The notes: generated from the letters alone by a model not told the origin. Numbered from the stretch's first letter, positions 34,009 to 48,445 are shown. The stretch: DNA of 64,000 nt from a virus (IMGVR_UViG_3300034104_002622:9284-73283); one strand, 5' to 3'. Numbers and translations are program-made.

Positions 34009-34035
34009 TGTTGTTTGTTTTTTTCTTGGTTGTTG

Positions 34036-34254: not shown

Positions 34255-34259
34255 AAATA

Positions 34260-35100: not shown

Positions 35101-35109
35101 AGCAAGAGA

Positions 35110-35580: not shown

Positions 35581-35874
35581 TTAGAATGCTTCTTCTGAAC
35601 TGCCGCTATTTGCTGCAATTTCTTTTGCTGTTTTGATGTCACCTTTTGAAAACACAACCTTACCATTACCTAGATAGGTTTTGGTTTTCTTTGCTTCGCG
35701 ATCTTCTTGGCTTTGAGAAAGCTGAACGGATACGTTATTTCCATAATTGTCATTCTTGTCATCGACAAAAATGGACAAAGGAATGAATGTGGCGGTTTTA
35801 CCTTTGATCATTTGATCTTCGGTGAGTTTTGCGATGTCTTCTTTTTTGATGCTGGCGCTAATAATAAGTCCCAT
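35581..35874 (-). CDS. Small phage SSB-like protein
   Basis: DNYGNN.SV..SQSQE.RE...YLGNGKV with acidic C-terminus ending in Phe (EEAF). Confidence 0.55.
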   Translation of the reverse strand: MGLIISASIKKEDIAKLTEDQMIKGKTATFIPLSIFVDDKNDNYGNNVSVQLSQSQEDREAKKTKTYLGNGKVVFSKGDIKTAKEIAANSGSSEEAF

Positions 35875-35902
35875 ATTTTTGTTTTTCTTGTTTGTTTGTT
35901 GT

Positions 35903-36493
35903 TTACTTAATGAAAACTGAAGCGCATTCTGAATAAGCTGCGACTACGAGTGGTTCTTTCCCATAGGGAGTGTTTCTGGCTTTTTCCATCTTGGCATTTA
36001 GATCCTCTAAGGATTTTTGGATCTTAAAGGATTCGATGATTTTGTCCATCATTCCGTCACTTTTTTGCGAGGTGGCTTTACTTTGATCAGAATTGTCCTT
36101 TCCGTGCGTTTCCGTAGCGTCTGCGTCTTTGGTGTCATCAATGCAGAACAAGCCGTTCAGGGCGTATTTACGGGCGTAGGAGGAGCAAGCGCCCGTCACT
36201 TGAGCGTCATCCATACCTTTTTTGCTTTCAGCTTCACGAGCAAATGCTGTGGTGGAGATGCTTTCTCCTGCATGAGTGAATGTTGCTGTAGCTTTTACGT
36301 AAACACGCCCACCAACTTCAACAATTTCATCGCTGATGGTTAGGATTGCGTCCACTGCATGAAGAAATGGCTTGAGGGCTTCAAGAATTCCCTCTGCGGA
36401 TCTGTATTTGTAATTTCCAAATTTGTTCTCAAGGTTTTTTGGAGCGTTGAGGTCAACTTGGATTGTTCTTAGTTTGTCTGCTGCTTTTTGCAT
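35903..36493 (-). CDS. erf: ERF-family single-strand annealing protein
   Basis: APK...N.FG.YKYRSAEGILEALKP; KKGMDDAQVTGACSSYARKYALNGLFCIDDTKDAD. Confidence 0.92.
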   Translation of the reverse strand: MQKAADKLRTIQVDLNAPKNLENKFGNYKYRSAEGILEALKPFLHAVDAILTISDEIVEVGGRVYVKATATFTHAGESISTTAFAREAESKKGMDDAQVTGACSSYARKYALNGLFCIDDTKDADATETHGKDNSDQSKATSQKSDGMMDKIIESFKIQKSLEDLNAKMEKARNTPYGKEPLVVAAYSECASVFIK

Positions 36494-36531
36494 TTATTTA
36501 TTTGTTTTGATTTAGTTAAGGCTAAAATATA

Positions 36532-36585
36532 TTCGAACAGTTCGATACACTGAACGCTGCGCATCAGTGATCTTAGCTGTTATCC
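36532..36585 (+). mobile_element. attC-like site 1 (short family, left end of array A)
   Basis: R'' TTCGAAC ... R' GTTATCC; imperfect inverted repeat. Confidence 0.75.
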
Positions 36586-36776
36586 AAAGAAATCAGCAGT
36601 TTGGCGGCGCGTTCCAGTTCAGGATTGAGCCAGTCCCTCTTTTGCGGTAGATCCGTAAGGATGTTGCGAATCACATAGAGCGCATCCGCTAGGCGGTCAG
36701 CGGCTTCATTCGATGGGCGATAGACTCCCGAGCTATTGTCTCGGAGCCATTTGATTAGTTCAGCGTTTGATTTCAT
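36573..36776 (-). CDS. Cassette ORF (LPQKRDWL module)
   Basis: Ends inside attC1; C-terminal half similar to 43645-43920. Confidence 0.65.
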   Translation of the reverse strand: MKSNAELIKWLRDNSSGVYRPSNEAADRLADALYVIRNILTDLPQKRDWLNPELERAAKLLISLDNS

Positions 36777-36789
36777 AATTTCGGAAGAT

Positions 36790-36880
36790 GGATAACAAGT
36801 TTGTAGAGGCGACGACGGGCAGCGTCCCCATTCAGGTTGGTAGTCCTTTCCCGTCGTCGCGCCTCACATCGGCGTTAGCG
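36790..36880 (+). mobile_element. attC-like site 2
   Basis: R'' GGATAAC (complement of the site 1 R') ... R' GTTAGCG; arms CGACGACGGG/CCCGTCGTCG. Confidence 0.85.
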
Positions 36881-37071
36881 GAAGATTTCAGAATGGCTTC
36901 CAGTTTCCATTTAACGTGATAGAACCAGTCCTGACTGATCCGCCCTGAGAAGGTTGCCATGTCTCCATCGTCCTCAACGTCCGAGTAGTCCAACTCGTCA
37001 AGAATCCCGAAGATCGCTAACAAGTCATGCGAGGCAACCTCTACAACGTCTTTTGGTGGATTCTGGCTCAT
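36832..37071 (-). CDS. Cassette ORF
   Basis: Starts in the attC3 loop and ends in attC2. Confidence 0.6.
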   Translation of the reverse strand: MSQNPPKDVVEVASHDLLAIFGILDELDYSDVEDDGDMATFSGRISQDWFYHVKWKLEAILKSSANADVRRDDGKGLPT

Positions 37072-37101
37072 GCGTTCGGTGCCTCCATATTTGCGTTAGG
37101 C
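37015..37101 (+). mobile_element. attC-like site 3
   Basis: R'' CGCTAAC ... R' GTTAGGC; GAGGCAACC/GGTGCCTC arms. Confidence 0.8.
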
Positions 37102-37358
37102 AGAATTAAATCTTCACGTTCGCGCCAGAATGCCAGTTGTTCAGACCAATCGCCGGCAAACATCTCCAACGGATATATTTCGTCGTTTTTCCGGTGCAGT
37201 TCCCTCCATGAGGATTCAAAATCCTCAAGGGATTTGAGTTGCTCAAATATAAACTCGTCTAACGTCAAAGAATGCCGAACAAGACGTGAGACGCAATCCC
37301 CACTAGTCTCCTGTTGGGTTAGGGTTTTCTGCTTCGGTGGTGATTTATCGTTTGGCAT
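37068..37358 (-). CDS. Cassette ORF
   Basis: Starts in the attC4 loop; stop overlaps the next ATG inside attC3. Confidence 0.65.
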   Translation of the reverse strand: MPNDKSPPKQKTLTQQETSGDCVSRLVRHSLTLDEFIFEQLKSLEDFESSWRELHRKNDEIYPLEMFAGDWSEQLAFWREREDLILPNANMEAPNA

Positions 37359-37405
37359 GGTCTTGGGGTATAAGTGGTGGGGATGCGTCTACATTGACGT
37401 TCGTA
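37274..37405 (+). mobile_element. attC-like site 4
   Basis: R'' GCCGAAC ... R' GTTCGTA; AGACGCAATCCCCAC/GTGGGGATGCGTCT arms. Confidence 0.85.
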
Positions 37406-37620
37406 GGTGAGAATTGCAGTTCATCCAGCATATCGCTTGGATTGTTATTTCCGTTTGCCATCGCTTCAATCCATCGCGCTGGGTCAATCGTTGCGGTGTG
37501 CTTCCATCCTTTATCTAAAAGTTTTGCTTCTACTTCTTGAAGCTCTTGGTCTGAGTAACATTTTATCATTCCATCAAGAGCGTAAATAAAAAGCATTCGA
37601 TCTAATCTAATTGTTTTCAT
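37345..37620 (-). CDS. Hypothetical protein ending in attC4
   Basis: Internal ATG (MKTIRLD); C-terminus encoded by the attC arm. Confidence 0.6.
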   Translation of the reverse strand: MKTIRLDRMLFIYALDGMIKCYSDQELQEVEAKLLDKGWKHTATIDPARWIEAMANGNNNPSDMLDELQFSPTNVNVDASPPLIPQDHAKR

Positions 37621-38471
37621 GTGTTTTGGGTTTTGCTGGTAAAACATTAAATATTTCAACTACTGGCTTTCCTGTCTCTGGATGACTAATCATTTTAAAC
37701 TCAACATCAAATTTTTTGATGCGTTCTCTAAAGTTATAAGCCATGTCAAAATCTGGAAACTCAACGTAAAGGTTAGAGTCGCGTTGGCTTACTTCTTCTT
37801 CAAGTCCAGAGTCTTCTAAAGCTCGCTGAAGGTAATAAGGTAAGTATTGGATGACACTCATTTTTTAAGTTGTTTTAGGTTTTCGATGAATTGCGCTGCT
37901 TCTGTTGCTGTTACCGTAATGTTAGAGCCGGGGTCGATAGTTGTTTGTGCTCCTCCTGTCCAAGAGTTGCCTATTCGTTTAGCTGGAGAAGGCATAGACA
38001 TTATCTTCCAATGGACAACTGAGCATTCTGATACTTTCCATGAATAGGGATTACCAGCTTGCCATTCATGATAGATGGCTGATGCCGACTGTTTAAGTGA
38101 CCATTCAACCACTTTATTTTCTTTAAGTAGTTCTTGGGTGTAACGCATAGCATTTAGCCAAAGCTTCTGCTTGGCTACTTGATGCAGCGATTCGATTAGA
38201 TTCACACTCATGACAATCAATCCTCTAGCCCCGAAGGGGCTTTGCGCGCTATTAGCATTGCGTCGGCGATTGAGTATGCTCCTTTGGCAACGTCGCAATT
38301 CCAGTTGTAAGACATTGCGGCTCTTCCGGACGCTACCATGATGGCAATAGCGATATTTTCACTTTGCATGGCTTGCCCAGCGAACCAGTCGCGCAGACTC
38401 ATGCCGCGTAATGCGTCGTCTCTTTCGTGCATCGGGAACGCTTGCCCGCCGTTGTCTTGTGGTGTGTTCAT
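37607..38471 (-). CDS. Three small early genes (37607-37861, 37858-38211, 38217-38471)
   Basis: 38217-38471 has the common phage GG.AFP...GMSLRDWFAGQA motif. Confidence 0.55.
38222..38241 (-). promoter_or_regulatory. C-GAA-G triloop hairpin element 2
   Basis: CCTCT-AGCCCC-GAA-GGGGCT. Confidence 0.5.
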
Positions 38472-38473
38472 TT

Positions 38474-39316
38474 TTATTTTGATTCACGTTTGTATTGTTC
38501 GCAAACATCTTTGAATCCACAGAATGAATTGCAGAATGTTTTTTCACCTTTGCGAATTTCTACTGTTTGATTTGGTTTTTTGAGTTCTTCTGCTTCTGAT
38601 AGCGTGTCGCATAGTTTTGAAGCTCGCTTGGCTCCGGGCGACATGATTGCGTAAACTGATGGCTTTTCCCATTGCTCTTCTGCTGTGCATGGGCGTGGTG
38701 AGCCATTATAAGCCTTCCAGTGGTCTTCTACGGTCTCTTTAATTAGCTTGGCTGCGAAGTCTTGATCATAGGGTTCTACGTAGATAGCAAAGGGTGTTTG
38801 CGGATACGTGGGGTCGAAGGTTGAGCGCATGTAGGACCAATCACGTTGAAGGTAAACAATTGAAACGTGTTCTACTTCATATCCATTTTTTTCTGCTAAC
38901 CATCCATTGATTTGAATTTGTTGGCGATGTTCTGGTTTCATTTTTTCCTGAAAACCAGCAGTGTTTTTGTAGTCGAACACTGTTTTATTTTCGTAGAAGT
39001 CTATTTGTCCTGAAATTGCAATGGTCTCTCCAAGATATGGATACTCATAGTGAAGTCGTTCTTCTGCTACTTCTCCGTTTTCAGTATCTACGTTATCTTC
39101 TAGGATGGAATGAATAGCTGTTCCCATCAAAGCATGGAACATAGTGTAGGGATTTTCTTGCTTTTCGTGGTTCTTTGCCAGCCATGTGCGTTGCGGAGGA
39201 GAGATTAACTGCGTGGTTGAAAATAAAGACTTTCCTTTTTCATACTTGTCTTTTGACAAAGCGCGAATGAACGGGCTAGGAAAGCTTTTGAGGTAGGATG
39301 CTGGTGTTTGTTTCAT
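38474..39316 (-). CDS. PD-(D/E)XK (Cas4/RecB-like) exonuclease
   Basis: GTAIHSILE...EER...SGQID...DYK...Q...C..FC.FK..C. Confidence 0.85.
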   Translation of the reverse strand: MKQTPASYLKSFPSPFIRALSKDKYEKGKSLFSTTQLISPPQRTWLAKNHEKQENPYTMFHALMGTAIHSILEDNVDTENGEVAEERLHYEYPYLGETIAISGQIDFYENKTVFDYKNTAGFQEKMKPEHRQQIQINGWLAEKNGYEVEHVSIVYLQRDWSYMRSTFDPTYPQTPFAIYVEPYDQDFAAKLIKETVEDHWKAYNGSPRPCTAEEQWEKPSVYAIMSPGAKRASKLCDTLSEAEELKKPNQTVEIRKGEKTFCNSFCGFKDVCEQYKRESK

Positions 39317-40001
39317 TGTTCGATAATAGTGTATTCGTTTTTTTCGAGCAGGAATCCCGGTAATGGACCGATGAAGATCAATTCTCTTTCTTTCCAGTCA
39401 GGAATATTCATTGCGTAGACTGCCGTATAAATTTTTTGTGGATCAAGCTCTAAGTCAGTTCCTAAGAGCTTGTAAGCTTTGTCTGGTTTTACTTTGAATT
39501 TTTTGGATCTCATTTATTTAATCTTGAGCTTCTATAATTACGTTCCAGATTGAGTCAGGTATCATATCTCTAACTGCTGTGTCTGCGTATCTTGCTAGAT
39601 TTCCAGCTTCTTTCCACTTTTTTGATTTGTAAAAAAAAAGGATTTTTCTTAGGATTTTTCTGTCTTCTGTATACATTTTTCTTATGCTTTGATCTTCATC
39701 ATGCTCAGCTTGGTGATTTTTAATGATGTGCTTAAAAAGTTTGATTGCGTTTTCATCTATTGTCATTTTGAATTCTTTTTTTATTTAGTCAGGCTAAATT
39801 TTAATCGAGCACACTGCGTCCACATAGCATTATAATGGTGTAATATGGCGGGAAATCATCTCCTGCACACATTTCTATTCCCTTCAGCAACCCAAATTCA
39901 ATGCAATTTGCGTTGATGCTGTTTTTTCTGAATCCTGAATTTTTAATCAGTTTTTCCAGTTTGTTTTTTATTTCTTCTTCTGTCGGTATGTTTTTATTCA
40001 T
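39313..40001 (-). CDS. Three small AT-rich hypothetical genes (39313-39513, 39518-39766, 39801-40001)
   Basis: Consecutive short leftward ORFs. Confidence 0.5.
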
Positions 40002-40048
40002 TGTGATTTTAGCGTTGACAAATTTTTTGATTGCTTTAGGTAGCGCTC

Positions 40049-40291
40049 ATGGAAAAGAGATTCAAGAAAGTAATCACTAACCCTGCGACTGGTCGCAAGA
40101 AAACTGTGAAGTTTGGACAGGCTGGCAAGGCTGCTGACGGTGGGGATCGCATCAGGCCGGGAACTTCTAAGGGTGACGCTTATTGCGCTCGCTCTGCTAA
40201 GATTAAAGGTGATTGGAAGTCCAATCCTAATTCGCCTAACAACCTTTCACGCCGGAAATGGAAGTGCAAAGGCAGCAAGTCTATGAAGTAA
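40049..40291 (+). CDS. Small basic protein common in aquatic phages
   Basis: K.VKFGQ...YCARS...SPN..SR.KW.C; TTGACA at 40015 upstream. Confidence 0.7.
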   Translation: MEKRFKKVITNPATGRKKTVKFGQAGKAADGGDRIRPGTSKGDAYCARSAKIKGDWKSNPNSPNNLSRRKWKCKGSKSMK

Positions 40292-40317
40292 TTGCTTTCT
40301 GAATCAGAAACAGCTTT

Positions 40318-40494
40318 ATGAAAAAAAAATCTACTGTCAACTCTTCTGGTAACTACACAAAGCCTACCATGAGAAAAGCCTTGTTTAATCGCATTAAAGC
40401 TGGCACGAAAGGCGGTGATCCCGGCGAGTGGAGCGCCAGAAAAGCTCAGCTTTTAGCTTCTGAGTATAAGAAAAAAGGCGGAGGCTACAAATAA
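40318..40494 (+). CDS. Small basic protein (58 aa; DUF5872-like N-terminal part), not in the ORF track
   Basis: MKKKSTVNSSGNYTKPTMRK...GG.PGEWSARKAQLLASEYKKKGGGYK. Confidence 0.7.
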   Translation: MKKKSTVNSSGNYTKPTMRKALFNRIKAGTKGGDPGEWSARKAQLLASEYKKKGGGYK

Positions 40495-40527
40495 CAACTC
40501 TCATTAAACGTAAACTAAAATAAAAAT

Positions 40528-40689
40528 ATGAAAGCAAAACCAAAGAAAGCAATGGTGTCTCCTAAGTCTAAAAAAGCAATGTCCAAGCCAATGTTAAAAG
40601 CAGCGGCTTCGAAAAAGATGGCCAAGAAAATGCCTAAGAGTATGGCAATGGGCATGAAGATGGGAATGCCTAGCAATATGGGATATTAA
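40528..40689 (+). CDS. Lys/Met-rich peptide (53 aa), not in the ORF track
   Basis: MKAKPKKAMVSPKSKKAMSKPMLKAAASKKMAKKMPKSMAMGMKMGMPSNMGY; A-rich leader. Confidence 0.55.
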   Translation: MKAKPKKAMVSPKSKKAMSKPMLKAAASKKMAKKMPKSMAMGMKMGMPSNMGY

Positions 40690-40704
40690 TCCTATTTTGA
40701 TTGA

Positions 40705-40935
40705 ATGAAAGCACCTCAACAATCCTTGAAAGATTGGACAGCCCAAAAATGGCGAACCTCTGATGGTAAGCCAAGCAAGGGCAAAAAGAGGTATTTGCCT
40801 GATTCTGCGTGGAAGTCTTTGACGGCTTCTGAAAAGGCTTCCACGAATCGGGCAAAGGCTAAGGGTAATGCTCAAGGCAAGCAGTTTGTTAAGCAACCTA
40901 AGTCGATAGCTAGAAAAACATCAGCACACAGATGA
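40705..40935 (+). CDS. Small basic protein (DUF5872-like C-terminal part)
   Basis: QQSLKDWT.QKWRT.DGK...RYLP..AW..L. Confidence 0.7.
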   Translation: MKAPQQSLKDWTAQKWRTSDGKPSKGKKRYLPDSAWKSLTASEKASTNRAKAKGNAQGKQFVKQPKSIARKTSAHR

Positions 40936-41564
40936 GAAACGCCAACCTACCAAAGTGTCGAGTTTACGTCCGTTGTGATGCCTTTGGTGGCAGTGAGACA
41001 GAGTTTGAACCTGCGTGGTTAGTCAGCGTCCGAGCGATGCGTAATCGTCCATTTTGTTTTCAAGTTTGGGTAGATAAATACGCTGCTTGCTTTGACAAGA
41101 TTCCGCCACAGTGCATCTACCATTACGAGCCGGATGGGAATCAAGCTAACTTACCGCTTCACAAGGTGCAAATGTGGGAGTGTTTATCTGGCAGCATTGA
41201 AGTCTGGCAGAAGAGTCAGCTTTGCGATGTGCCGATGCTTGTCAACATGGGTAAGGGTTTTGCTCCGATGACTGGGCATTACTGGTTTACGATTGATTTT
41301 TTACCCGAACATCAATGTGCAGGAATACTGGACATTGGTGACGTTGAGTTGCTGGAAGAGCACAAAGAGGGAAACGTGGTAAAGTTGTCGAACGGACAGA
41401 TTGCCATCTACCCAAATAATAGGCTTAAATGGTTGCCTATAAGCCTTGTGAAAGAAGGCGCGGCAGAACGCATCCCTAGCTGGGAGGTTGCCACAAACGA
41501 GCAATGGGACGACTGGTGGCAAGACTCATCAGAAATCCTCGGAGACTCCAAGTGGGCTTACTAA
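40932..41564 (+). CDS. Conserved phage hypothetical protein (210 aa)
   Basis: ANLP...Q.W.C...G.Y.FTID...EHK...NGQ.A.YPNNR pattern. Confidence 0.7.
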   Translation: MRNANLPKCRVYVRCDAFGGSETEFEPAWLVSVRAMRNRPFCFQVWVDKYAACFDKIPPQCIYHYEPDGNQANLPLHKVQMWECLSGSIEVWQKSQLCDVPMLVNMGKGFAPMTGHYWFTIDFLPEHQCAGILDIGDVELLEEHKEGNVVKLSNGQIAIYPNNRLKWLPISLVKEGAAERIPSWEVATNEQWDDWWQDSSEILGDSKWAY

Positions 41565-41760
41565 TATTTAATTGTTTAGCTTTAATTTGTAGGTCTTTTG
41601 TTGTTTTTTCCATGTGCTCAAGAAGAATGTCTTGCATCCAATATGGAGGACAGCGTCTTCCTGACCTCCAATCGTAAGCTGTTGGCATAGAGCATCCAAT
41701 TTTTTCAGCAATTTGCTTAGCTGTGTATTTTGATATTTTTTGTTTGAATGTTTTTTTCAT
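41476..41760 (-). CDS. Small helix-turn-helix protein
   Basis: AKQIAEKIGCSMPTAYDWRSG (XRE/Cro-like). Confidence 0.65.
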   Translation of the reverse strand: MKKTFKQKISKYTAKQIAEKIGCSMPTAYDWRSGRRCPPYWMQDILLEHMEKTTKDLQIKAKQLNISKPTWSLRGFLMSLATSRPIARLWQPPS

Positions 41761-41768
41761 GTTTTTAA

Positions 41769-42938
41769 TTACAGGTCAATTTCCAAATGAATGCTCCATG
41801 CTTTAACAAGTTCGTTCATTAGAAATTGCTCAAAACGTCTTGATTCGTCTGAATAGCCAATTGTATGACAATGCTCTTCTAGCAGCGTGGTAATCAAAAA
41901 AAACAATCCTTGGTCAAAAGAACGTTCTGTTAAGTGGATAATTTCTGAATGAACAAAAGCGATGTTTAAGTTATCTTCATTTGAGATATATTTGATTTTT
42001 GCTTTTACGTCGTATCCCATTTTTGCCAAAAACTCTTTAGCCTTGGCTAACATCCGTTCGTGGCGCTCAGGCATTTCAATTTGATTGAACTCAGCGTCAG
42101 GCAATTGGCTGCGTATTTGGTGTTGGAGATTACTGATTAGTTTGGTGGGGGATTCTTCCCAGATTTCAGCTACAACTTCTTTCATTGTTACTCCCCACGT
42201 GCCGTAATATCCACGGTCAGCTTCCCAATTAGGTTTTTTCGCTGTAAATAAGTGTTTTAAGATAGACTTATTCGTTAGTTTTTCGATGCCTCTTTCAATA
42301 GACCGATAGACATCGTAGATATTAAAGATAGTGCGATCTTCTGTAAGTTTTACTTCATCTAGCAATTCGTAAGAATACATCGCTTCTTCGATGAAGCCTA
42401 CCTTAACTCCACGATAAAATATTTCGCCATCTCCTTTGTAAATGTTGATTTTGTCGGAAGAGGCAATAGGGACGCGAGCACCTACGAAAATGTTTTCGTG
42501 ATTGTCATAGCACTCTGCAAATTTTTTGTGAGTGATATAGATAGTGCTGTCTTGTATTGAAACTGGGTGGCGACCCCATTCTCCTCCTTCGTCTATTGTA
42601 TTCGAAACAAGCTCACGGTAGGCTCCTTCTAGCTCCCACTGCTTTCCAAGTTCTGTTGTAAATCCAAGCTCACGATCATTGCAAGTAATTACATCAAATG
42701 TTTTTCCACGGAATTCTTTAGTTTCTTTTCCAAATTCATATATCCCATTGGGAGTGATGATGCTGACTGTTGCGTTTTCACGAATGAGAACAGCTAAGGC
42801 TAATTTCATTCCGGTTCCAAAGAAGCCAATTGGAGAATTATTATCTGGTTTAGCATTAATTCCCATAATACTCCAGCTTTCAGGGTGAAGAATGCCAGGA
42901 GTGGTAAGCATTATTGTATTTGAACAATCTGTATTCAT
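41769..42938 (-). CDS. GHKL-like ATPase N-terminus plus zincin-like C-terminus
   Basis: IGFFGTGMK; C-terminal TLLEEHCH...DESR.F. Confidence 0.6.
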   Translation of the reverse strand: MNTDCSNTIMLTTPGILHPESWSIMGINAKPDNNSPIGFFGTGMKLALAVLIRENATVSIITPNGIYEFGKETKEFRGKTFDVITCNDRELGFTTELGKQWELEGAYRELVSNTIDEGGEWGRHPVSIQDSTIYITHKKFAECYDNHENIFVGARVPIASSDKINIYKGDGEIFYRGVKVGFIEEAMYSYELLDEVKLTEDRTIFNIYDVYRSIERGIEKLTNKSILKHLFTAKKPNWEADRGYYGTWGVTMKEVVAEIWEESPTKLISNLQHQIRSQLPDAEFNQIEMPERHERMLAKAKEFLAKMGYDVKAKIKYISNEDNLNIAFVHSEIIHLTERSFDQGLFFLITTLLEEHCHTIGYSDESRRFEQFLMNELVKAWSIHLEIDL

Positions 42939-42970
42939 TGTTTATTTGTTTATTTGTTGTTACAAATCAA

Positions 42971-42988
42971 CCTCAAGCCCGAAGGGCT
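42971..42988 (-). promoter_or_regulatory. C-GAA-G triloop hairpin element 3
   Basis: CCTCA-AGCCC-GAA-GGGCT, intergenic. Confidence 0.55.
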
Positions 42989-43023
42989 TTAAGTTTATTG
43001 ATTTATGATTTATTTGTAATTGT

Positions 43024-43155
43024 TCAGTATCTCTTTGAGCAATTAGAGCAAACGCTCTGTCCGTGCTTTGTGAAGATCAAGGGTGTTTTGCAGTCGCGGC
43101 AAAAGCCGAAGAACTTGCAGGGTTTTCTGAGGTAGTAGCGTAGTTTGCATCTCAT
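43024..43155 (-). CDS. 43-aa Zn-ribbon peptide, copy 1 (not in the ORF track)
   Basis: MRCKLRYYLRKPCKFFGFCRDCKTPLIFTKHGQSVCSNCSKRY; paralogue at 47540-47671. Confidence 0.7.
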   Translation of the reverse strand: MRCKLRYYLRKPCKFFGFCRDCKTPLIFTKHGQSVCSNCSKRY

Positions 43156-43169
43156 GGTGTTTGTTGTTG

Positions 43170-43223
43170 TTCAAACAGGTTGATGCACTGAACGCTTTGC
43201 GTCACCGATCTTGGCTGTTCGGA
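43170..43223 (+). mobile_element. attC-like site 5 (short family, left end of array B)
   Basis: R'' TTCAAAC ... R' GTTCGGA; similar to sites 1 and 14. Confidence 0.75.
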
Positions 43224-43429
43224 ATAAAAACTCGCATCCAGAATGCGACGGGCTGAGACGATGTTTGTCCGCGCCACCCGAATCTTTTGCTCCATGATCC
43301 TTTGTCCCACCAACCGTCAGCGCGGATGATGACTACTTGTTCACCGTCATTCGGCAATGTTGAATCGGCAGAAAAGATTTCCGAACAATTCGTGAGAGGC
43401 AACGCCTCGGAGTTTTCTTGTGTATTCAT
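43202..43429 (-). CDS. Cassette ORF (DUF551-like)
   Basis: LP...VVI...W...W...V.FWM; starts in attC6 and ends in attC5. Confidence 0.6.
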   Translation of the reverse strand: MNTQENSEALPLTNCSEIFSADSTLPNDGEQVVIIRADGWWDKGSWSKRFGWRGQTSSQPVAFWMRVFIPNSQDR

Positions 43430-43465
43430 AGTCGTTAAGGGCGTGCCTCCACAGAGGCGTTCGAC
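43380..43465 (+). mobile_element. attC-like site 6
   Basis: TCCGAAC-AATTC-GTG[A]GAGG ... CCTCCAC-AGAGGC-GTTCGAC: canonical 5/8 and 7/6 spacing with an extrahelical base. Confidence 0.92.
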
Positions 43466-43624
43466 TTACTCATAGAAGGCCAGCTTGATCTTTTGTTGTG
43501 TCACATCCAGACTCAGCAATGACCAAGAGTGCCCGGTGTTGAAGTTTTGGACATCAATGACTGAGATTCTCCAGCCACCGTCAGGCCGGATGTAGAGTTT
43601 GAAGAGTTGTATTTCGATTTCCAT
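43466..43624 (-). CDS. Cassette ORF (52 aa)
   Basis: MEIEIQ...; lies wholly between attC6 and attC7. Confidence 0.5.
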   Translation of the reverse strand: MEIEIQLFKLYIRPDGGWRISVIDVQNFNTGHSWSLLSLDVTQQKIKLAFYE

Positions 43625-43644
43625 GTTAGTGTGGTGTGTTGTCG

Positions 43645-43920
43645 TTACAAAGTCGAACAAGGCGCGGCAGATAACCGCTCTGGGCTATCTGTCGTATTTG
43701 CCACGTCCTGGGTTCGCGGTATCTGCGCTTGGGCGTTAGCCTGAAGAATAAATTTTGCCTCACGCTCAAGCTGCGGGTCGAGCCAATCCCTTTTTTGCGG
43801 AAGGTCATTGATGATTCGCCGCAAGACCGATTCGACCGATCCAGCAAATGCAATCATGTCTTCGATGGCTCGCGGCTTAGGGATGCGGCTTCGTATTTCG
43901 TCTCGTATTGGTGTATTCAT
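43645..43920 (-). CDS. Cassette ORF (LPQKRDWL module)
   Basis: Reads through the whole of attC7. Confidence 0.6.
   Translation of the reverse strand: MNTPIRDEIRSRIPKPRAIEDMIAFAGSVESVLRRIINDLPQKRDWLDPQLEREAKFILQANAQAQIPRTQDVANTTDSPERLSAAPCSTL
43652..43741 (+). mobile_element. attC-like site 7
   Basis: R'' GTCGAAC ... R' GTTAGCC; GCG[G]CAGATAACCGC/GCGGTATCTGCGC arms. Confidence 0.9.
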
Positions 43921-43930
43921 AATTCAAAGA

Positions 43931-44021
43931 GGCTAACAAGTGGATGCTGGCAACGGCGGGAGTTGCCCTGTTGGTTTATTCGGAGTCCAGCGCCCGCCGC
44001 GCCAGATCCTTGTCGTTCGGC
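43931..44021 (+). mobile_element. attC-like site 8
   Basis: GGCTAAC-AAGTG-GAT[G]CTGG ... CCAGATC-CTTGTC-GTTCGGC. Confidence 0.92.
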
Positions 44022-44251
44022 TTAGAAAGCATGAGTAGCGTCCATGAGATTGTAACCAGCACCAAGATACCCAACGGGAGTCCGATCTTAGCGGTATTGC
44101 CTGAGTCCAGACGGGTCAGCACCGATGAGAGAAGAAAGCCCATCTGGAAGGTTACAATCAGTGTCGTGATTAGCCACGCTTTGAAACGTGCCGAACAAAG
44201 CGTAGATGGCGATTCCGAGGAATCGCTCTGTTCAAGTTTTGGGGTAGTCAT
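43976..44251 (-). CDS. Cassette ORF, two-TM membrane protein
   Basis: Two hydrophobic stretches; starts in attC9 and ends in attC8. Confidence 0.6.
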   Translation of the reverse strand: MTTPKLEQSDSSESPSTLCSARFKAWLITTLIVTFQMGFLLSSVLTRLDSGNTAKIGLPLGILVLVTISWTLLMLSKPNDKDLARRALDSE

Positions 44252-44313
44252 AATGTTTGATTGATGTTGAGAGAGTCACTGAGCCTCGGAACCGCCATTA
44301 CTCGACGTTCTGG
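44190..44313 (+). mobile_element. attC-like site 9
   Basis: R'' GCCGAAC ... R' GTTCTGG; ATGGCGATTCCGAGG/CCTCGGAACCGCCAT arms. Confidence 0.88.
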
Positions 44314-44552
44314 CCATACAATGCAGACAAGATGGCATCGACGCGCCCTTGCGCTGGATCGGTTCCTTTGCGCCGGTGTTCGTGCAGATCCTCGTCCTCC
44401 ATGAATGGGACTTTCACGATGACTATCAACTCGCCCGCTTCGTCTCGGAGCCATCCCCAATCAGCATGTTTGGATCGGTCATGGGAGAGACGCCCAACCC
44501 AGCCAGAACAAGTCGTGAGAGGCAACGCCTCGGAGTTTGTTGGTGTATTCAT
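44298..44552 (-). CDS. Cassette ORF
   Basis: ATG (MNTPTNSEALPL) in the attC10 loop; ends in attC9. Confidence 0.6.
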   Translation of the reverse strand: MNTPTNSEALPLTTCSGWVGRLSHDRSKHADWGWLRDEAGELIVIVKVPFMEDEDLHEHRRKGTDPAQGRVDAILSALYGQNVE

Positions 44553-44588
44553 AGTCGTTATTGGCGTGCCTCCACAAAGGCGTTGTAG
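44503..44588 (+). mobile_element. attC-like site 10 (close paralogue of site 6)
   Basis: CCAGAAC-AAGTC-GTG[A]GAGG ... CCTCCAC-AAAGGC-GTTGTAG. Confidence 0.92.
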
Positions 44589-44598
44589 CAAAGAATGC

Positions 44599-44904
44599 TC
44601 ATTTGCGGCGATCTCCGAGGATTCCAAGCATGGAGGTTGTGCCGCGTTGCCGTGGCATCAAGACCCGCTCTCCGGGTTCGCCGCGATCCCCTCCGCATTG
44701 GGCGTGTGTCCCATCCTCGAATCGGGCAAGGGTCATTACATCCGTTCCCACGTATCCCCAATTCGTGCCCTCTTTGACGACCTTCCTGACGATTGCGGGT
44801 TCGTCCACGTAGTAAGGCATTACAGACATTGCCTCCAGCCCGAATCCGAAGACTGCTATTGCGGATGCGCAGAGCGCGGCGATTCCAAGGTGTTCAAGTT
44901 TCAT
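44599..44904 (-). CDS. Cassette ORF with N-terminal TM/signal segment
   Basis: LGIAALCASAIAVFGFG; between attC10 and attC11. Confidence 0.6.
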   Translation of the reverse strand: MKLEHLGIAALCASAIAVFGFGLEAMSVMPYYVDEPAIVRKVVKEGTNWGYVGTDVMTLARFEDGTHAQCGGDRGEPGERVLMPRQRGTTSMLGILGDRRK

Positions 44905-44937
44905 ATTTTATCGGAGTTTGAGATTGGTTCGGAAGAG

Positions 44938-45037
44938 CTACAACAAGCGGATCGTGGCAACCCGCTCCCGCCCGCCATTTTAGATTTGATCGGGCTTCAC
45001 TGGTGCGGGATCGGTTGCCACATCCTCGGCGTTCTCG
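44938..45037 (+). mobile_element. attC-like site 11
   Basis: CTACAAC-AAGCG-GAT[C]GTGG ... CCACATC-CTCGGC-GTTCTCG. Confidence 0.92.
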
Positions 45038-45222
45038 GATAACTTGTTGAGGGCGCGGCGGTGGTGCTTGTAGCGGTTGTCGTGGTGGCATGATCCATCG
45101 GAGCAAGTGAAGGTCACGGGGTCGCCTACTCTTTCGAGGTGGTAACACGCCCACACTGAATGCCAGCTTCCGAGAACAAGGCGTCGCACGCCGACGCCGC
45201 GAAGTTTTGTGATGATTTTCAT
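44980..45222 (-). CDS. Cassette ORF
   Basis: Starts in the attC12 loop and ends in attC11. Confidence 0.55.
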   Translation of the reverse strand: MKIITKLRGVGVRRLVLGSWHSVWACYHLERVGDPVTFTCSDGSCHHDNRYKHHRRALNKLSENAEDVATDPAPVKPDQI

Positions 45223-45258
45223 GGTTTATTTTCGGCGCGGGTGGACTCGACGTTCGCA
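45171..45258 (+). mobile_element. attC-like site 12
   Basis: CGAGAAC-AAGGC-GTC[G]CAC ... GTGGAC-TCGAC-GTTCGCA. Confidence 0.85.
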
Positions 45259-45542
45259 GAAATAAGGCCCGCGACGAGTTCGGGGACTTTCAGAGCCAGA
45301 ACGTCTTCCTGTATGCTCCCATCGTCCGATGTCTTTGCTGCCTCGCCGAACATCTCCCCTATCTGGGTGACGATTCCGTGATAGAACGCCTCGTTCCGTG
45401 AGAACTGAGCGGCAGAGTCCATCCATGCGGCAATCCGCTTTGCCACGGCTTCCGCAAGGACAACGTCCATTTCAATGTGCTTGGTTTCATCGTCGCACCA
45501 GCATTGGGCGGCGATCTGTCTTGCTTCTTCGATGTATGTCAT
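45219..45542 (-). CDS. Cassette ORF
   Basis: MTYIEEARQIAAQCWCD...; stop overlaps the next ATG inside attC12. Confidence 0.65.
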   Translation of the reverse strand: MTYIEEARQIAAQCWCDDETKHIEMDVVLAEAVAKRIAAWMDSAAQFSRNEAFYHGIVTQIGEMFGEAAKTSDDGSIQEDVLALKVPELVAGLISANVESTRAENKP

Positions 45543-45554
45543 AAGATAAAATTC

Positions 45555-45653
45555 TGCGAACAAGGCGGTCCACGGAACGGCTACCCGTTGGACGCTTTGG
45601 GTGAAGGTTGAGTCTCAGCCACGGGTAGCCGCGCGTGGCCTTGTTCGTTCGGG
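45555..45653 (+). mobile_element. attC-like site 13
   Basis: R'' TGCGAAC ... R' GTTCGGG; CGGCTACCCGT/ACGGGTAGCCG arms. Confidence 0.88.
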
Positions 45654-47169
45654 GTTAGGGATTGGAGGGCATCACAAATCATGGATTGCAGTGCCTGACG
45701 TGCAAACAGAGCTTGATCTTCGCCTCCGCATTCTCGGCAACTTGTCCCATCCGCTATTAGACGCAGTTTCTCCGCCAGCCTGTCGCGCTGCTCGGTGACT
45801 GTCTTATTTTCCATCATCAGGGATAAAGCGGTTGTCTCTATATTTGCATATTTGTTTTTTAGAATATCCAGTTCTTCTGCAATCTGATACCAAGATTTAC
45901 CGCTAAGGCATAGAGCCTTCCATCTTTCGTTTGTGGTTGGTGTATTGTTCATGCTTCCTTCGGGGTTAGGGATTGGAGGGTTGTTTCGGCAAGGTCTTTT
46001 GCTGATTGTGGGTCTTCGTGAATCAAATTGAAAACACTACAAAGATTATCCGCCAGCCTGTCCCGCTGTGCGGTGACGGTGGCGAGTTCCTCCTGTGCCT
46101 TGGCGAATCCGTAGTCCATAAACTCGCGGGTTCGGATTGTCTCCTCCCGTGCCTCGTCCCGCTCGCGTTCTAACCTTCTGGCGAAGTCTATGCTAACTCT
46201 ACCTGTCCCAAACTGGGCTTCGTCGGTTTCTGGTGTGTCGCTCATTTCGCGCCCTCCAATGCTTTTTCTGCTTTGATTTGTGATCTATCCCATCCAACTC
46301 CGTAAAGGTCGCCGTGAACTTGCCTAATGTATCGCCAGCCAGATAGCATATCGCGCAAAGCCTCCCGCGCCTTGTCCCGCTCGCGTTGCAATGTCTTAGC
46401 ATGATCCCAGATAGTTCCGTTGGGGTCGCGGAGTTCGCAACCAAGGTCTTTGTTTTGTTGGATGTATTTTGCCTTCCATTCGTCGCGTTCGCGTTTGAGT
46501 TCTGCGTTGGTTTCCTTTAGGAATTGCTTGTATGCTTTTATGTCCTCTATGTTGGTTGCTTTTAACGTAGATTCGTCCGTCTCAGGTGTGTCAGTTTTCA
46601 TGGCTTCTGGGTTAGGGATTGGAGGGCTTGCTGGGCTTTTTCAAATGCTTCTGGCATGGATACTGGCATAAAATCAACGCTGTCAATACAGTTGCAAGAT
46701 TCTATCAAGTCTTGTAGTGCCTCCGCCAGCCTGTCCCGCTGTGCGGTGATGGTGGAGAGTTGGTGTTTGAGTCTTGTTATGATTTGACTAATGTAACATG
46801 CGACTGCAATGATTGTAATGGCTGGGGCAATTATGTCTAAATAGTTCATGGCTTATGGGTTAGGGATTGGAGGGCTTCGGTTGCAACAAATCTAGCTCCG
46901 TGACCATTATCGCATTGGAGGTCTGAGTAATCGAATGTCGTAATCATTTGCAACGCTTCCACCAGCCTGTCGCGCTCGTCTAATGTCTGTGCCAGTTTCT
47001 TGCCCATGCGCTCGTTGGCATCGTTTAGTTCTCGGCAAACACTCGACATCCTCCATTGCTCCCGTGCCTCGTCCCGCTCGCGCCTTGCTTCTTTTAAGAG
47101 TTCCCATGCAGCCAGTTCACATTGAAGGTCGTTCTCAGCATCCGTCTTAGGTGTTGGTTGTGTATTCAT
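45581..47169 (-). CDS. Five tandem paralogous coiled-coil genes (45581-45952, 45949-46245, 46242-46601, 46598-46849, 46846-47169)
   Basis: Shared TPETD, RERDEARE, QRDRLA and LQSLT modules; all ATGA-coupled. Confidence 0.7.
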
Positions 47170-47528
47170 GGTTCTTTGTTCGGGTTGGTTGTCCACTTTC
47201 TAATCGTGCGAAAGAAAGCTTCTGCGCGTTGGGCGGCGGTTGCGGTAATGCACATATCAAAATCCATTTGTGCTTTTGTTACTCCAGCTTCTCGGCGGAT
47301 CGCTTTTTTGATTTGTTGCGTGTATTTCTTTGGGAGATTCGGGTCGCCATAAAGCATTTTCTCGGCTTCGTGCATCGCGTTTAAGTCGTTGCAGTAGTCG
47401 GGAAGCTGGTGAACGTCACGCGATAGACGCGCTTGTGGCGGTCGCCAGTATCGAATCTGTGAATTTCCCACGTGGGAAATCCATCCGCACGACTCAGCGA
47501 TGGCGATTCTTTGCGCTTTTGGTTTCAT
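47166..47528 (-). CDS. ABA-sandwich-like phage protein, copy 1
   Basis: RIAIAESCGW...LPDYCNDLNAMHEAEK...ATAAQRAEAF. Confidence 0.6.
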   Translation of the reverse strand: MKPKAQRIAIAESCGWISHVGNSQIRYWRPPQARLSRDVHQLPDYCNDLNAMHEAEKMLYGDPNLPKKYTQQIKKAIRREAGVTKAQMDFDMCITATAAQRAEAFFRTIRKWTTNPNKEP

Positions 47529-47539
47529 ATTTTTGTAGT

Positions 47540-47671
47540 TCAATATCTCTTTGAGCATCTAGGGCAGATGCCCTGTCCGTGTTTTGTGAACATCAAGGTC
47601 GCCCTGCAATCGCGGCAGAAACCGAGAAACTTGCAGAGTTTTCCGAGGTAGTATCGTAGTTTGTATTTCAT
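47540..47671 (-). CDS. 43-aa Zn-ribbon peptide, copy 2 (not in the ORF track)
   Basis: MKYKLRYYLGKLCKFLGFCRDCRATLMFTKHGQGICPRCSKRY. Confidence 0.7.
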   Translation of the reverse strand: MKYKLRYYLGKLCKFLGFCRDCRATLMFTKHGQGICPRCSKRY

Positions 47672-47689
47672 TGTGATAATTGAATTATA

Positions 47690-47741
47690 ATCGAACAGGT
47701 TGATGCGGTGAACGAAGCGTCACCGATCTTGGCTGTTCTCG
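47690..47741 (+). mobile_element. attC-like site 14 (short family, left end of array C)
   Basis: ATCGAAC-AGGTT-GAT[G]CGGT-GAAC...GTC-ACCGATC-TTGGCT-GTTCTCG. Confidence 0.85.
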
Positions 47742-48025
47742 GAAGAAATTTCCGCAGCCATCTTGTCCATGACAGCTTCAGCCGCCACATGCCCGCGATG
47801 TTTCAGCAGTTGCCGGATGCGGTGCTTTAGCTTGTTTTCGCTGCGTTCGAGCGCCTTGGCGTGTTCCTCCATCTTTTCGAGGTTGTGCCAGTCTTGCCAG
47901 TTGTTCCGCTTTATCTCTTCGGAGAGAGCGGCGGTCTTGGGAGTTTCGCGGAGTCGCTCGGACAAAGAAGACCGAGAACAAGTCGCCGCACGCAACGGGC
48001 TATCACTTTTCAATTTCTTTTTCAT
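47720..48025 (-). CDS. Cassette ORF
   Basis: ATG (MKKKLKSD) in the attC15 loop; ends in attC14 with NSQDR, identical to the end of 43202-43429. Confidence 0.6.
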   Translation of the reverse strand: MKKKLKSDSPLRAATCSRSSLSERLRETPKTAALSEEIKRNNWQDWHNLEKMEEHAKALERSENKLKHRIRQLLKHRGHVAAEAVMDKMAAEISSENSQDR

Positions 48026-48066
48026 GGTCGTTTCAGGTTCGCCCGTGCGTGGGCTAGGCGTTAGCA
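47973..48066 (+). mobile_element. attC-like site 15
   Basis: R'' CGAGAAC ... R' GTTAGCA; CACGCAACGGGC/GCCCGTGCGTG arms. Confidence 0.88.
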
Positions 48067-48329
48067 AGATGAAGTTTCACGTAGTCCATCGCCGCCCGTT
48101 TCGCTTTGTCCTCGGAGAGAGGTTCGTCGTTGCAGGAATTGTAAAGCGGCACACTTTTGCCTCTTGCCACCCAATACCAACCTTGCTTCCCGCTGTGTCG
48201 GCGAGAATACTCGTAGGCGTTGGCGTATTCCTCCCCTCCCATGTTGAGCGAGTGTCCGGGATGACCGCTGCATACACCCGCAAGCCCTGTCGGACGCGGA
48301 TTCTTTTTCCATCTCAATGCCTGTTTCAT
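48054..48329 (-). CDS. Cassette ORF
   Basis: MKQALRWKK...GWYWVA; ends in attC15. Confidence 0.6.
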   Translation of the reverse strand: MKQALRWKKNPRPTGLAGVCSGHPGHSLNMGGEEYANAYEYSRRHSGKQGWYWVARGKSVPLYNSCNDEPLSEDKAKRAAMDYVKLHLANA

Positions 48330-48360
48330 ATTTGTTTGGAGTTTTGGGGTTATTCGGTTT

Positions 48361-48445
48361 CGCTAACAAATCGCCGTATCCAACGGCGGCCAGATCTTTA
48401 TTTTAGTCGGCGTCCTTTCCGCCGTGGATAGGTTCGGCGTACACT
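48361..48445 (+). mobile_element. attC-like site 16 (R' degenerate)
   Basis: R'' CGCTAAC; TATCCAACGGCGG/CCGCCGTGGATA arms; GTA in place of GTT at 48439. Confidence 0.65.

Follow-up and report, generated by a model that had tools for sequence, protein, structure and literature searches.

In integrons, attI is the primary insertion site, lies beside intI and is recombined as double-stranded DNA. Cassette acquisition is thought to require attI in this position, and attC clusters without an integrase are usually regarded as passive relics. The attC sites usually span ~57–141 bp. Among phages, the closest described systems are CALINs: the parts of Qi et al. 2023 (PMC9892861) considered here describe 17 of them, each with at least 2 predicted attC sites, as well as inverted GTTRRRY motifs at CALIN borders and five DNA methyltransferases in CALIN cassettes. 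A further comparison is offered by the promoter-early stem-loops (PeSLs) of T4-type phages (Arbiol et al. 2010, PMC2839356; Comeau et al. 2014, PMC4122927).

The window, i.e. the whole 64,000-nt stretch of DNA that was analyzed, comes from a complete 73.3-kb record with a terminal repeat of ~114 nt that represents a lake phage without an integrase. Three arrays of attC-like sites, called with an in-house hairpin scan rather than with IntegronFinder, are each headed on the left by a short site:

35903–36493, minus strand: Erf gene, separated from short site A by a palindromic TTTAGCC..CTAAA motif
36532–36585, plus strand: short site A, core from AAC to GTT at 36536–36581 (46 nt), left end of array 1
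36582–37401, minus strand: array 1, three cassettes, each a minus-strand ORF followed on the right by an attC-like site of its own (36794–36876, 37019–37076, 37278–37401)
37403–37659, minus strand: backbone gene whose C-terminus (..QFSPTN) joins array 1 at an in-frame AAC
43022–43219, minus strand: zinc-ribbon unit 1, a 43-aa Cys-rich (zinc-ribbon-like) ORF (43027–43155) plus short site B
43170–43223, plus strand: short site B, core 43174–43219 (46 nt), left end of array 2
43220–45649, minus strand: array 2, eight cassettes, sites at 43384–43461, 43656–43737, 43935–44017, 44194–44309, 44507–44584, 44942–45033, 45175–45254 and 45559–45649
47538–47737, minus strand: zinc-ribbon unit 2, ORF 47543–47671 plus short site C
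47690–47741, plus strand: short site C, core 47694–47737 (44 nt), left end of array 3
47738–48595, minus strand: array 3, sites at 47977–48062 and 48365–48434; right border put at ~48595, from where the sequence is again homologous to that of the sister phage G001

With 4, 9 and 3 co-oriented sites, respectively, and no PF00589 match in the complete record, the three arrays are CALINs, i.e. integron-type clusters of at least two attC sites in a row without an integrase nearby. All 12 plus-strand hairpin-arm matches at or below −9 kcal/mol fall inside the arrays and none elsewhere in the 64 kb; the minus strand has just 1 match at this threshold. The cassette genes are read towards the short-site end, which is thus the promoter-distal end. 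None of the 14 cassette ORFs of the window matched Pfam or PHROGs, no recombinase was found among the 57 window proteins compared with Pfam, and a megablast search of 28000–36500 against phage records gave no match. The zinc-ribbon units are bounded by GTT (43022–43024 and 43217–43219 for the first, 47538–47540 and 47735–47737 for the second), and their ORFs are 70% identical at the amino acid level. Because sites B and C are each the right end of this repeated ~200-nt unit, they are not independent, and the term array-terminal applies to the hairpins only, not to the cassettes. The backbone gene at 37403–37659 has homologues in 62 viral loci, mostly with no array after them; apart from the window, two of the 62 carry the short family, so that this locus alone is unfit for testing terminality.

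The preliminary description, which was made from the sequence alone, had reported three much shorter sites at 36532, 43170 and 47690, all belonging to a family without internal members, each heading an array and supplying a stop codon within a few codons of an Asn. The positions, the family and the place at the left end of an attC-like array are all borne out: the pattern TGAACG-N5-7-TCASYGATCTTRGCTGTT has 3 matches in the 64-kb window, compared to 0 in 100 dinucleotide-preserving shuffles, and a profile of 25 copies (3 from the window and 22 from viral loci) retrieves sites A, B and C alone (E ≤ 1e-3). The short sites measure 44–46 nt from AAC to GTT (52–54 nt with the outer box bases) and are the shortest natural attC-type structures within this data set. 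The range of 85–132 bp given for the other sites has to be revised to 58–124 nt for the 13 in the window, two of which, with limits set by eye, span just 58 and 70 nt. At all three short sites, the minus-strand junction AAC continues the reading frame of the upstream ORF, with the stop following N-S at site A and N-S-Q-D-R at sites B and C, i.e. 2–5 codons past the Asn; this property is real but not peculiar to the short family, given that the generic sites 37019–37076 and 47977–48062 likewise stop after N-A. The copies were gathered by means of a strict pattern, so that the invariance of the positions it fixes, among them the TCA behind the TGA stop, is circular.

The short site is a minimal attC-type hairpin, built like attC rather than attI. 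Across 31 aligned copies (29 distinct), 94.2% of the cells are paired, compared to 25–45% in slid controls, and covariation is apparent in two adjacent pairs that switch jointly from A-T/C-G to G-C/G-C (14 vs. 11 and 15 vs. 10 sequences). The predicted layout consists of an R box, AACAG/CTGTT, paired in 26–29 of the 29 distinct copies; short unpaired spacers of 3 and 4 nt; an L box with two extrahelical bases on the 5' arm of the plus strand (alignment columns 17 and 24); and a 3-nt loop, with 97.4% pairing over the 12 pairs of the inner helix. Thus, the outer AAC/GTT boxes pair (R''/R'), the L''/L' box is paired and has extrahelical L'' bases, an unpaired spacer and a terminal loop are present, and crossover between G and TT marks the cassette border in three comparisons (L008 with the window, array 1 of G001 with L022, and L010 with L016). 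The strict RYYYAAC/GTTRRRY consensus is only loosely followed, with TYRAAC as the left box and variable bases past GTT, and the length, by either measure, is below the usual attC range. Site C is the best-folding of the three window copies; the single-sequence fold of site B, where the stem has two mismatches and combines a left arm of the CAC type with a right arm of the CCG type, is weak (z = −0.9 and −0.6). At gathering thresholds, Rfam returned only tmRNA and tRNA, and no attC family. According to the rules in the relevant part of PMC5027507, extrahelical bases lie near L'' and the cleaved AAC is in R' of the bottom strand; the unpaired bases on the 5' arm therefore identify the plus strand as the 'top' strand.

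PF00589 is absent from 16 records of the window's lineage, 6 of them rated 100% complete, so the catalyst is unobserved in this lineage. It is also missing from G000 and from 10 other records with the short site, and the 59 ORFs of 140 aa or more in the 30 short-site loci (up to 2 kb on each side) yielded no recombinase family. An IntI-like protein of 321 aa is found in 3 of 10 records that share one of the window's attC types, e.g. encoded by L142:1429–2391. It matches TIGR02249 in one stretch (E = 3.5e-57, model positions 14–314 of 315), with 194 bits against a cut-off of 265, and its best solved relative is IntI4 (2a3v, E = 1.4e-32), to which it aligns over residues 50–317 with small gaps only, through the W-x-x-LFPS region. 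In 5 of 5 loci examined, the IntI-like gene lies at the left end of the array, beside a conserved junction ending in CTGTT, with 2–3 co-oriented sites to the right of this attI-like junction. The attI-like regions next to the phage integrases lack a hairpin fold (z = 0.16 and 0.71).

The polarity of the sites on the plus strand, the GTT breakpoints, and the integrase and attI-like junction at the same end in all five loci together support placement of the short site at the attI-equivalent end of the array. Like attI, it comes first by attC polarity, remains fixed to the platform with constant sequence on one side and varying cassettes on the other, and has its junction between G and TT; with the attI-like junctions of the integrase-bearing phages, it shares the CTGTT end. 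It differs from attI in having no integrase gene nearby, in being a conserved hairpin with extrahelical bases and covariation rather than an unfolded site acting as duplex DNA, and in occurring in up to three copies per genome. The suggestion that it substitutes for attI is thus supported for position but not for structure, and the accompanying idea that cassettes enter at the left end overlooks gene direction, since this end is promoter-distal, the opposite of integron logic.

The short hairpin was identified in 30 distinct phage or metagenome loci from two collections. On the left it lies in 7 conserved contexts, and on the right it is followed by 27 different sequences. Generic sites, which are very diverse relative to the short family and mostly end in CGTT rather than CTGTT, occur 24 times within 40,137 nt on the right side (in 15 of the 30 loci) vs. 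twice within 43,234 nt on the left; in 14 loci, the short site and a backbone terminator hairpin follow each other with no intervening ORF. Array-terminality across phage contigs, as proposed earlier, largely holds by this count but has an exception, the L093/L103 hybrid, which joins a generic-type left half to a short-family right half and, in L103, lies inside an array. Likewise, in a loose end from one lake-metagenome run (X12), a different left half is attached at 43189. At the array-1 locus, cassettes but no short site are present in the sister phage G001, and its homology with the window ends there right after the left-hand CGAAC. A scan of bacterial and archaeal genome contigs with the short pattern gave 0 matches and thus no link to a host or a bacterial integron.

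Comparison of related arrays supports the conclusion that the short site stays with the backbone as the DNA to its right changes. L021, L011, L022 and L017 have in common the short site and the right backbone (98.2–99.8% identity among L011, L022 and L001, the last being identical to L021; 99.7% for L017 vs. L021) but differ in their four inserts, which are 278, 308, 280 and 525 nt long. The left flank is 98.4–99.5% identical among L021, L011 and L022 over at least 612 nt adjoining the short site; the best left matches of L017 do not adjoin it. Most informative breakpoints between related arrays coincide with (C)GTT or lie no more than a few bases from it, and in the same three comparisons that define the cassette border, they fall at the GTT of the short site itself. 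L010 equals L016 minus 1162 nt with an exact join of GTT to CGGCTTAAATTG, leaving the short site fused to the backbone gene with no cassettes; this empty copy has 44 nt of right flank only and stands at a contig end. Array 1 of the window is the L017 array plus one extra cassette beside the short site, the single difference confined to the first position, most related arrays being completely different. Of 28 related pairs, 26 do not have the same first cassette, a count that does not discriminate, as in most of these pairs the distal block held in common is the backbone. Changes occur further in as well: L007 and L090 have the first ~945 nt in common and differ beyond (internal replacement), and one lake contig lacks 1123 nt between the homologous sites 43384 and 44507, with the first cassette kept. 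Lake-metagenome contigs, which in some runs do not cover parts of the stretch, have ends or joints matching the cassette borders at 43931–43935, 44017–44021, 44582–44584, 45030–45037 and 45643–45648. Joints that skip from 43220 to 43935, from 43222 to 45770 and from ~45667–45670 to 45770 were not accepted as deletions because the intervening DNA is 'not known'.

Our preferred reading, to which we assign a probability of about 60%, is that the lake-phage arrays belong to the integron family and that the short hairpin is the resident site anchoring them, with recombination provided in trans. The hairpin would then probably anchor gene capture in phages that have no integrase of their own. Other phages carry complete members of this family, in which the array is accompanied by an IntI-like integrase and an attI-like junction. 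The short site would be resident and non-excisable, at the equivalent of the integrase-proximal end; cassettes, each a minus-strand ORF body with its own site on the right, would lie to its right and join at its GTT; and after loss of all cassettes, the site would remain, fused to a backbone gene. It would also terminate translation of the abutting ORF, as the junction AAC encodes Asn and the reading frame closes 2–5 codons further on. Either the host or a co-infecting phage may supply the recombinase, an IntI-like integrase; the short site may serve as a target through attC × attC exchange; and arrays may be seeded by the short site, by itself or as part of a small founder cassette, for which the zinc-ribbon unit is an example. 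A bolder version, which we consider unlikely, makes the hairpin a portable landing pad, a mobile hairpin-form equivalent of attI that would seed arrays at bare GTT(CGG) cores with an integrase supplied in trans. The 46-nt hairpin would then be either a mini-cassette that has no ORF or the site belonging to very small founder cassettes, inserted at the 3' ends of phage genes in integrase-less lytic phages, and cassettes would be captured and shed by the integrase of co-infecting integron-bearing phages.

It is conceivable, although on balance we doubt it, that the short site is the ordinary terminal attC of the first cassette inserted at a bare GTT, for instance the zinc-ribbon unit, with no docking role. 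Its left position would be kept because excision between two sites always retains the left one, and cassettes could come and go at any site of the array. In its favour are sites B and C as right ends of a GTT-bounded ~200-nt unit, the internal changes in L007 vs. L090 and between 43384 and 44507, the G001 array without a short site, and the fact that what looks like a single gain or loss at the first position is seen among related pairs only for array 1 vs. L017. It does not readily account for the same ~46-nt family heading arrays in 7 unrelated left contexts when generic sites are so diverse, nor for the 14 of 30 loci that have no ORF up to the backbone terminator hairpin and hence no founder gene there, and the CTGTT end common to the short site and the attI-like junctions of all five integrase loci, as opposed to the mostly CGTT generic ends, also argues against it.

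The in-frame stop that each of the three window copies provides 2–5 codons past the junction Asn, together with the location at the promoter-distal end of minus-strand gene rows, with the next gene or a terminator hairpin immediately downstream, could instead point to an expression element (a translation stop, an RNA hairpin or an insulator) closing the small-gene operons at their 3' end, with homologous recombination around it. This we regard as very unlikely: the short site has no T-run, and a terminator scan around site A was empty there; generic sites provide stops too; the breakpoints fall at a fixed GTT with 3–5 nt shared, not in the longer conserved left arms; and the layout agrees with the attC rules in each feature. 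Chance resemblance or an assembly artefact deserves mention, since every related sequence comes from a metagenome assembly and several contigs end in or near the sites; given 0 matches in 100 shuffles, 30 distinct loci from two collections and identical junctions recurring in independent contigs, we consider such an origin extremely improbable.

What sets these loci apart is a conserved minimal hairpin in the attI position across many lytic-type lake phages, a site that persists in an empty array and borders DNA turning over between phages whose flanks are ~99% identical. Should it function as a target, orphan arrays would be active gene-capture platforms served in trans, and phages could trade small accessory genes, including DNA methyltransferases, through a common cassette pool. 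The short site would also be a simple substrate for defining the minimal needs of an integron integrase.

The PeSLs of T4-type phages, as described in PMC2839356, resemble these arrays in that short repeated stem-loops border small, non-essential ORFs within the hyperplastic regions of lytic phages and mediate modular shuffling between close relatives. In that source, however, a PeSL is a promoter and terminator unit that recombines by homology between copies, whereas the sites here are heterogeneous in sequence, exchange at a fixed GTT and are accompanied by an IntI-like integrase in other phages. A scan of 36300–37700 gave no promoter- or terminator-like match on site A, neither a sigma-70 promoter nor a T-run, and both a PeSL-type and a terminator-type identity of the short site were rejected on the absence of promoter and T-run and on the exchange at a fixed GTT. 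Canonical integron cassettes differ in that the ORFs here are on the opposite strand and in frame across the junction AAC, and in that the R boxes, canonically RYYYAAC/GTTRRRY, fit GCCGAAC/GTTCGGC. The resemblance to phage CALINs, as far as the consulted parts of PMC9892861 describe them, extends to imperfect AAC/GTT hairpins between small genes in integrase-less, lytic-type phages, to DNA methyltransferase cassettes (here in L009/L016 and G023) and to crossover at the GTT core; a conserved minimal hairpin heading the array is not described in section 3.4 of that report. Thus, by comparison with these parts of PMC9892861, the system is of a known kind, phage CALINs and integrons, and the array-heading minimal hairpin family is a new variant of it.

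Three short sites were identified at the left ends of arrays 1, 2 and 3 (hairpins A, B and C; window cores 36536–36581, 43174–43219 and 47694–47737), and inspection of the window sequence showed that they are as the preliminary description had them, with a stop within a few codons of the junction Asn (after N-S or N-S-Q-D-R). The pattern that they share matched 3 times in the window vs. 0 times in 100 shuffles, and a profile built from 25 copies found no further family member in the window, as that description had also held; its range of 85–132 bp for the remaining sites was too high, given that, measured from AAC to GTT, the short sites span 46, 46 and 44 nt and the others 58–124 nt. Array sites were called with a purpose-written hairpin scan for AACA[AG]...GTT elements with pairing arms (DNA parameters, 26-nt arms, ≤ −9 kcal/mol), which at this threshold detects 12 of the 16 window sites. 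The 12 matches on the + strand of the window all fell within three blocks:

36.5–37.4 kb, + strand, scan matches
43.15–45.66 kb, + strand, scan matches
47.68–48.6 kb, + strand, scan matches

Outside these blocks, there was no + strand match at ≤ −9 kcal/mol in the window, and the minus strand gave one match. Including sites below the threshold or delimited by eye, arrays 1, 2 and 3 hold 4, 9 and 3 sites. In the minus-strand reading, 15 of the 16 sites have their junction AAC in frame with the longest ORF upstream (at one of these, 43384–43461, the upstream frame has only 13 codons), and a stop codon follows 2–30 codons from this AAC, Asn counted.

In the alignment of 31 copies of the short-site hairpin (29 distinct), 94.2% of the alignment cells are paired in the hairpin as drawn, compared to 25–45% for slid partners, and two neighbouring base pairs change jointly between two alleles; a few copies, including window short site B, are mismatched hybrids of these alleles. 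When folded as single sequences, C folds well (z = −2.6 and −3.4), A fairly and B weakly. Two unpaired bases are kept on the + strand 5′ arm. The part of Nivina et al. (2016, PMC5027507) considered here places extrahelical bases near L′′ and puts the conserved AAC that is exchanged in the bottom-strand R′; by this rule, because the unpaired bases sit on the + strand 5′ arm, the bottom strand is the minus strand, with exchange at the + strand GTT of the short site. Comparisons of arrays also show exchange at this GTT.

The cassette unit was delimited by comparing related contigs. In the sister phage G001 (70.6 kb; backbone mostly 92–98% identical to the window, 71–98% across aligned blocks), the window array-1 cassette 36874–37066 lies immediately right of a B-type short site (99% identity). 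Since window 36874–37402 directly follows the short site in three related loci (L006, L017 and L019), window array 1 has one extra cassette (36582–36876) between short site A and this block. Four loci (L021, L011, L022 and L017) have the short site in common, and the right backbone as well (right backbone identity 98.2–99.8% among L001 [identical to L021], L011 and L022, and 99.7% for L017 vs. L021), and the left flank adjoining the short site is 98.4–99.5% identical among L021, L011 and L022 (the best left-flank matches of L017 do not adjoin the short site); the inserts are four unrelated sequences of 278, 308, 280 and 525 nt. Most informative homology breakpoints between related arrays are located at, or a few bases from, (C)GTT. 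Judging by these comparisons and breakpoints, a cassette extends from just past one GTT to the next, with its own hairpin on the right and its ORF on the minus strand. Cassette borders are independently supported by contig ends or loose ends in lake metagenomes (43931–43935, 44017–44021, 44582–44584, 45030–45037 and 45643–45648), and one 452-nt high-depth lake contig is exactly 44582–45033. A contig of this phage from the lake-metagenome run X12 lacks 1123 nt between homologous sites (window 43389 to 44513) and is a natural variant without four cassettes.

The start of a cassette ORF is often carried by the cassette's own hairpin and its stop is supplied by the left neighbour. Sites 43384–43461 and 44507–44584 (91% identical) each contribute an ATG and a common 17-aa N-terminus (MNT..NSEALPLT.CS), from which the reading frame continues into ORF bodies unrelated to each other; thus, the recombination site supplies the protein start. 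A separate gene group was noted beside array 2:

45581–47196, minus strand, tandem row of five paralogous coiled-coil genes

Start and stop signals of these paralogues overlap as ATGA, the C-terminal ..ALQSLTP is conserved, and array 2, at its rightmost site, is fused to the Asn codon of the last paralogue.

Array 1 is joined to a backbone gene (window 37403–37659, minus strand) with homologues in 62 viral loci, the majority of which have no array; in one related locus (L031), a stop of its own ends the gene and a terminator hairpin directly follows. The terminal ...P-x-N codon (AAC) of this gene is found in both array-bearing and array-less lineages, so that the arrays sit at a native GTT core. 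In locus L010, the short site is present alone, its GTT directly abutting the backbone-gene end, CGGCTTAAATTGAATTTC...; this gene then terminates in ...EIQFKPN-SQDR-stop; this sequence is exactly that of L016 minus 1162 nt of cassettes, with a right flank 44 nt long at the contig end. The array-1 locus of G001 (L023–L026, positions 6380–7672) has cassettes and no short site, and its homology to the window stops just past ...ATCGAAC, i.e. at the left-hand AAC, where an exchange involving the opposite strand would be expected.

With membership in the short family defined by a strict search pattern, TGAACG-N4-8-TCANNGATCTTRGCTGTT, 22 loci were found in viral contigs and 29 in metagenomes (30 distinct after dropping 21 duplicates), and the pattern was absent from 185,579 bacterial and archaeal genomes; all relatives compared are metagenome assemblies. 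Of the 30 distinct loci, 27 differ on the right side of the site, and the left flanks fall into seven contexts.

Left contexts of the short site in 30 distinct loci
Terminator-like hairpin of a convergent gene: 14 loci
GTTGGAGARTAA leader of a coiled-coil gene: 6 loci
End of a convergent gene: 5 loci
Start of another gene: 2 loci
Remaining contexts: zinc-ribbon ORF; Erf; hybrid site

No ORF was found on the left side of the short site in the 14 terminator-context loci. To the left of each of B and C lies a 43-aa Cys-rich ORF (the two are 70% identical), and homology between the two copies begins exactly at GTT (43022–43024 and 47538–47540) and ends at the short-site GTT. Under the GTT-to-GTT rule, this zinc-ribbon unit counts as a cassette that has the short site for its attC and was inserted at a GTT standing alone.

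At ≤ −9 kcal/mol, 24 generic sites (longer attC-like hairpins) lie right of the short site (15 of 30 loci, 40,137 nt) vs. 2 on the left (43,234 nt). One of the latter (L012) reads as an opposite-strand site of a convergent array past the terminator; the other (L103) has to its right a hybrid site with a short-family right half and a generic-type left half, so that this hybrid is internal to its array. In the hybrids of L093 and L103, the short-family right half (TGAACG onward) is joined to differing left halves, and an X12 loose end joins a further left half at window 43189; all these joins are close to the hairpin top and not at GTT.

The virus record containing the window (73,283 nt, terminal direct repeat of ~114 nt, rated 100% complete) has phage-like gene content in the window (a 5353-aa ORF, primase-helicase, Erf, exonuclease and HNH endonucleases), with the minus strand coding from 24 kb to 55 kb. 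No tyrosine recombinase (PF00589) is encoded in the complete 73,283-nt record. Shine-Dalgarno sequences are absent before window genes, as judged by reading gene starts, which suggests a host of Bacteroidota type. Other features include:

7560–23621, plus strand, one ORF of 5353 aa (left out of the Pfam and PHROGs scans of window proteins)
51451–51845, minus strand, full-length tmRNA (scoring 137 bits in Rfam, with tag peptide GNNVIRGNFGSNTVALVA)
58527–58600, plus strand, tRNA-Met
34681–34702, 36505–36530, 39780–39800, 49750–49768 and 53737–53755, palindrome TTTAGCC-N3-5-GGCTAAA, repeated upstream of minus-strand genes

This palindrome could act as a phage promoter or operator.

Exact copies of the left arm of site 43935–44017 are present in 21 viral loci, and among 10 of the corresponding records, 3 encode a 321-aa tyrosine recombinase ~3 kb from a site of this type:

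L142 (phage record G023), 1429–2391, 321-aa IntI-like protein, best family TIGR02249 'integron integrase'

The match to TIGR02249 (E = 3.5e-57) covers model positions 14–314 of 315 in one stretch at 194 bits (cut-off 265); among solved structures, Vibrio cholerae IntI4 (2a3v, E = 1.4e-32) is its best relative, and the alignment to it is unbroken through the W-x-x-LFPS region. Five integrase loci were examined, including three further relatives at 73–79% identity and leaving out a sixth, the 100%-identical copy L150. In all five, the integrase gene occupies the left end in minus-strand orientation, followed by a 40–50-nt region ending in CTGTT and then by 2–3 co-oriented attC-like sites within 2.5 kb. 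These attI-like regions do not fold (z = 0.16 and 0.71), and a stop occurs soon past the Asn of the junction (AAC AGT TAA in G023). The integrase-bearing records G016 and G023 are 99.96% identical as far as the attI-like CTGTT; past it, the first 0.7–1.3 kb differ and, farther on, common cassettes are reshuffled. None of the 6 integrase contigs was among the short-pattern contigs, and no integrase was found in any of the 11 records with a short site that were tested.

The phage contigs L142 and L145–L150 carry a complete integron-like platform of IntI-like integrase, attI-like junction and long arrays of co-oriented attC sites, with cassette ORFs that are antisense to site polarity and point in the same direction as the integrase. 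An N6/N4 DNA methyltransferase cassette adjoins the short site (L009/L016) or the attI-like junction (G023), and the cassette beside the short site of L094 encodes a GmrSD_N (DUF262) protein, suggestive of defence or counter-defence cargo. The first-cassette cargo ORFs are:

L009, 455–1237
L094, 953–1633
L142, 2437–3081

The window arrays are integrase-less members (CALINs, i.e. attC clusters lacking an integron integrase) of a phage-borne integron family, and their short site is an attC-type hairpin of minimal size. In these orphan arrays, it fills the position that attI has in complete ones, with the CTGTT crossover end in common. We consider it likely (0.6) that the short site acts as the array's resident partner in recombination, anchoring it and outlasting its emptying. 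It may further be a preferred entry point for cassettes and might seed arrays, with an integrase presumably supplied in trans by a co-infecting phage or by the host. Because arrays also change internally and one array (G001) has no short site, the observations argue against an exclusive role.

Among known systems, integrons and 17 CALINs have been reported in phages, and IntI1 recombines 5 of 6 phage attC sites; in the part of that report considered here, the borders of phage CALINs are noted for inverted GTTRRRY motifs and nothing further (Qi et al. 2023, PMC9892861). In the literature on phage attC sites, integrons and CALINs, as represented by titles and the beginnings of abstracts and by part of PMC9892861, no paper on a conserved terminal mini-hairpin was found. 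Genes of the arrays read towards the short-site end; therefore, in contrast to integrons, a cassette entering there would be the last in the operon and not the first. The nearest non-integron analogue of the short site appears, from part of the published account (PMC2839356), to be the PeSLs of T4-type phages, which, unlike the short site, are promoter-terminator units that recombine by homology.
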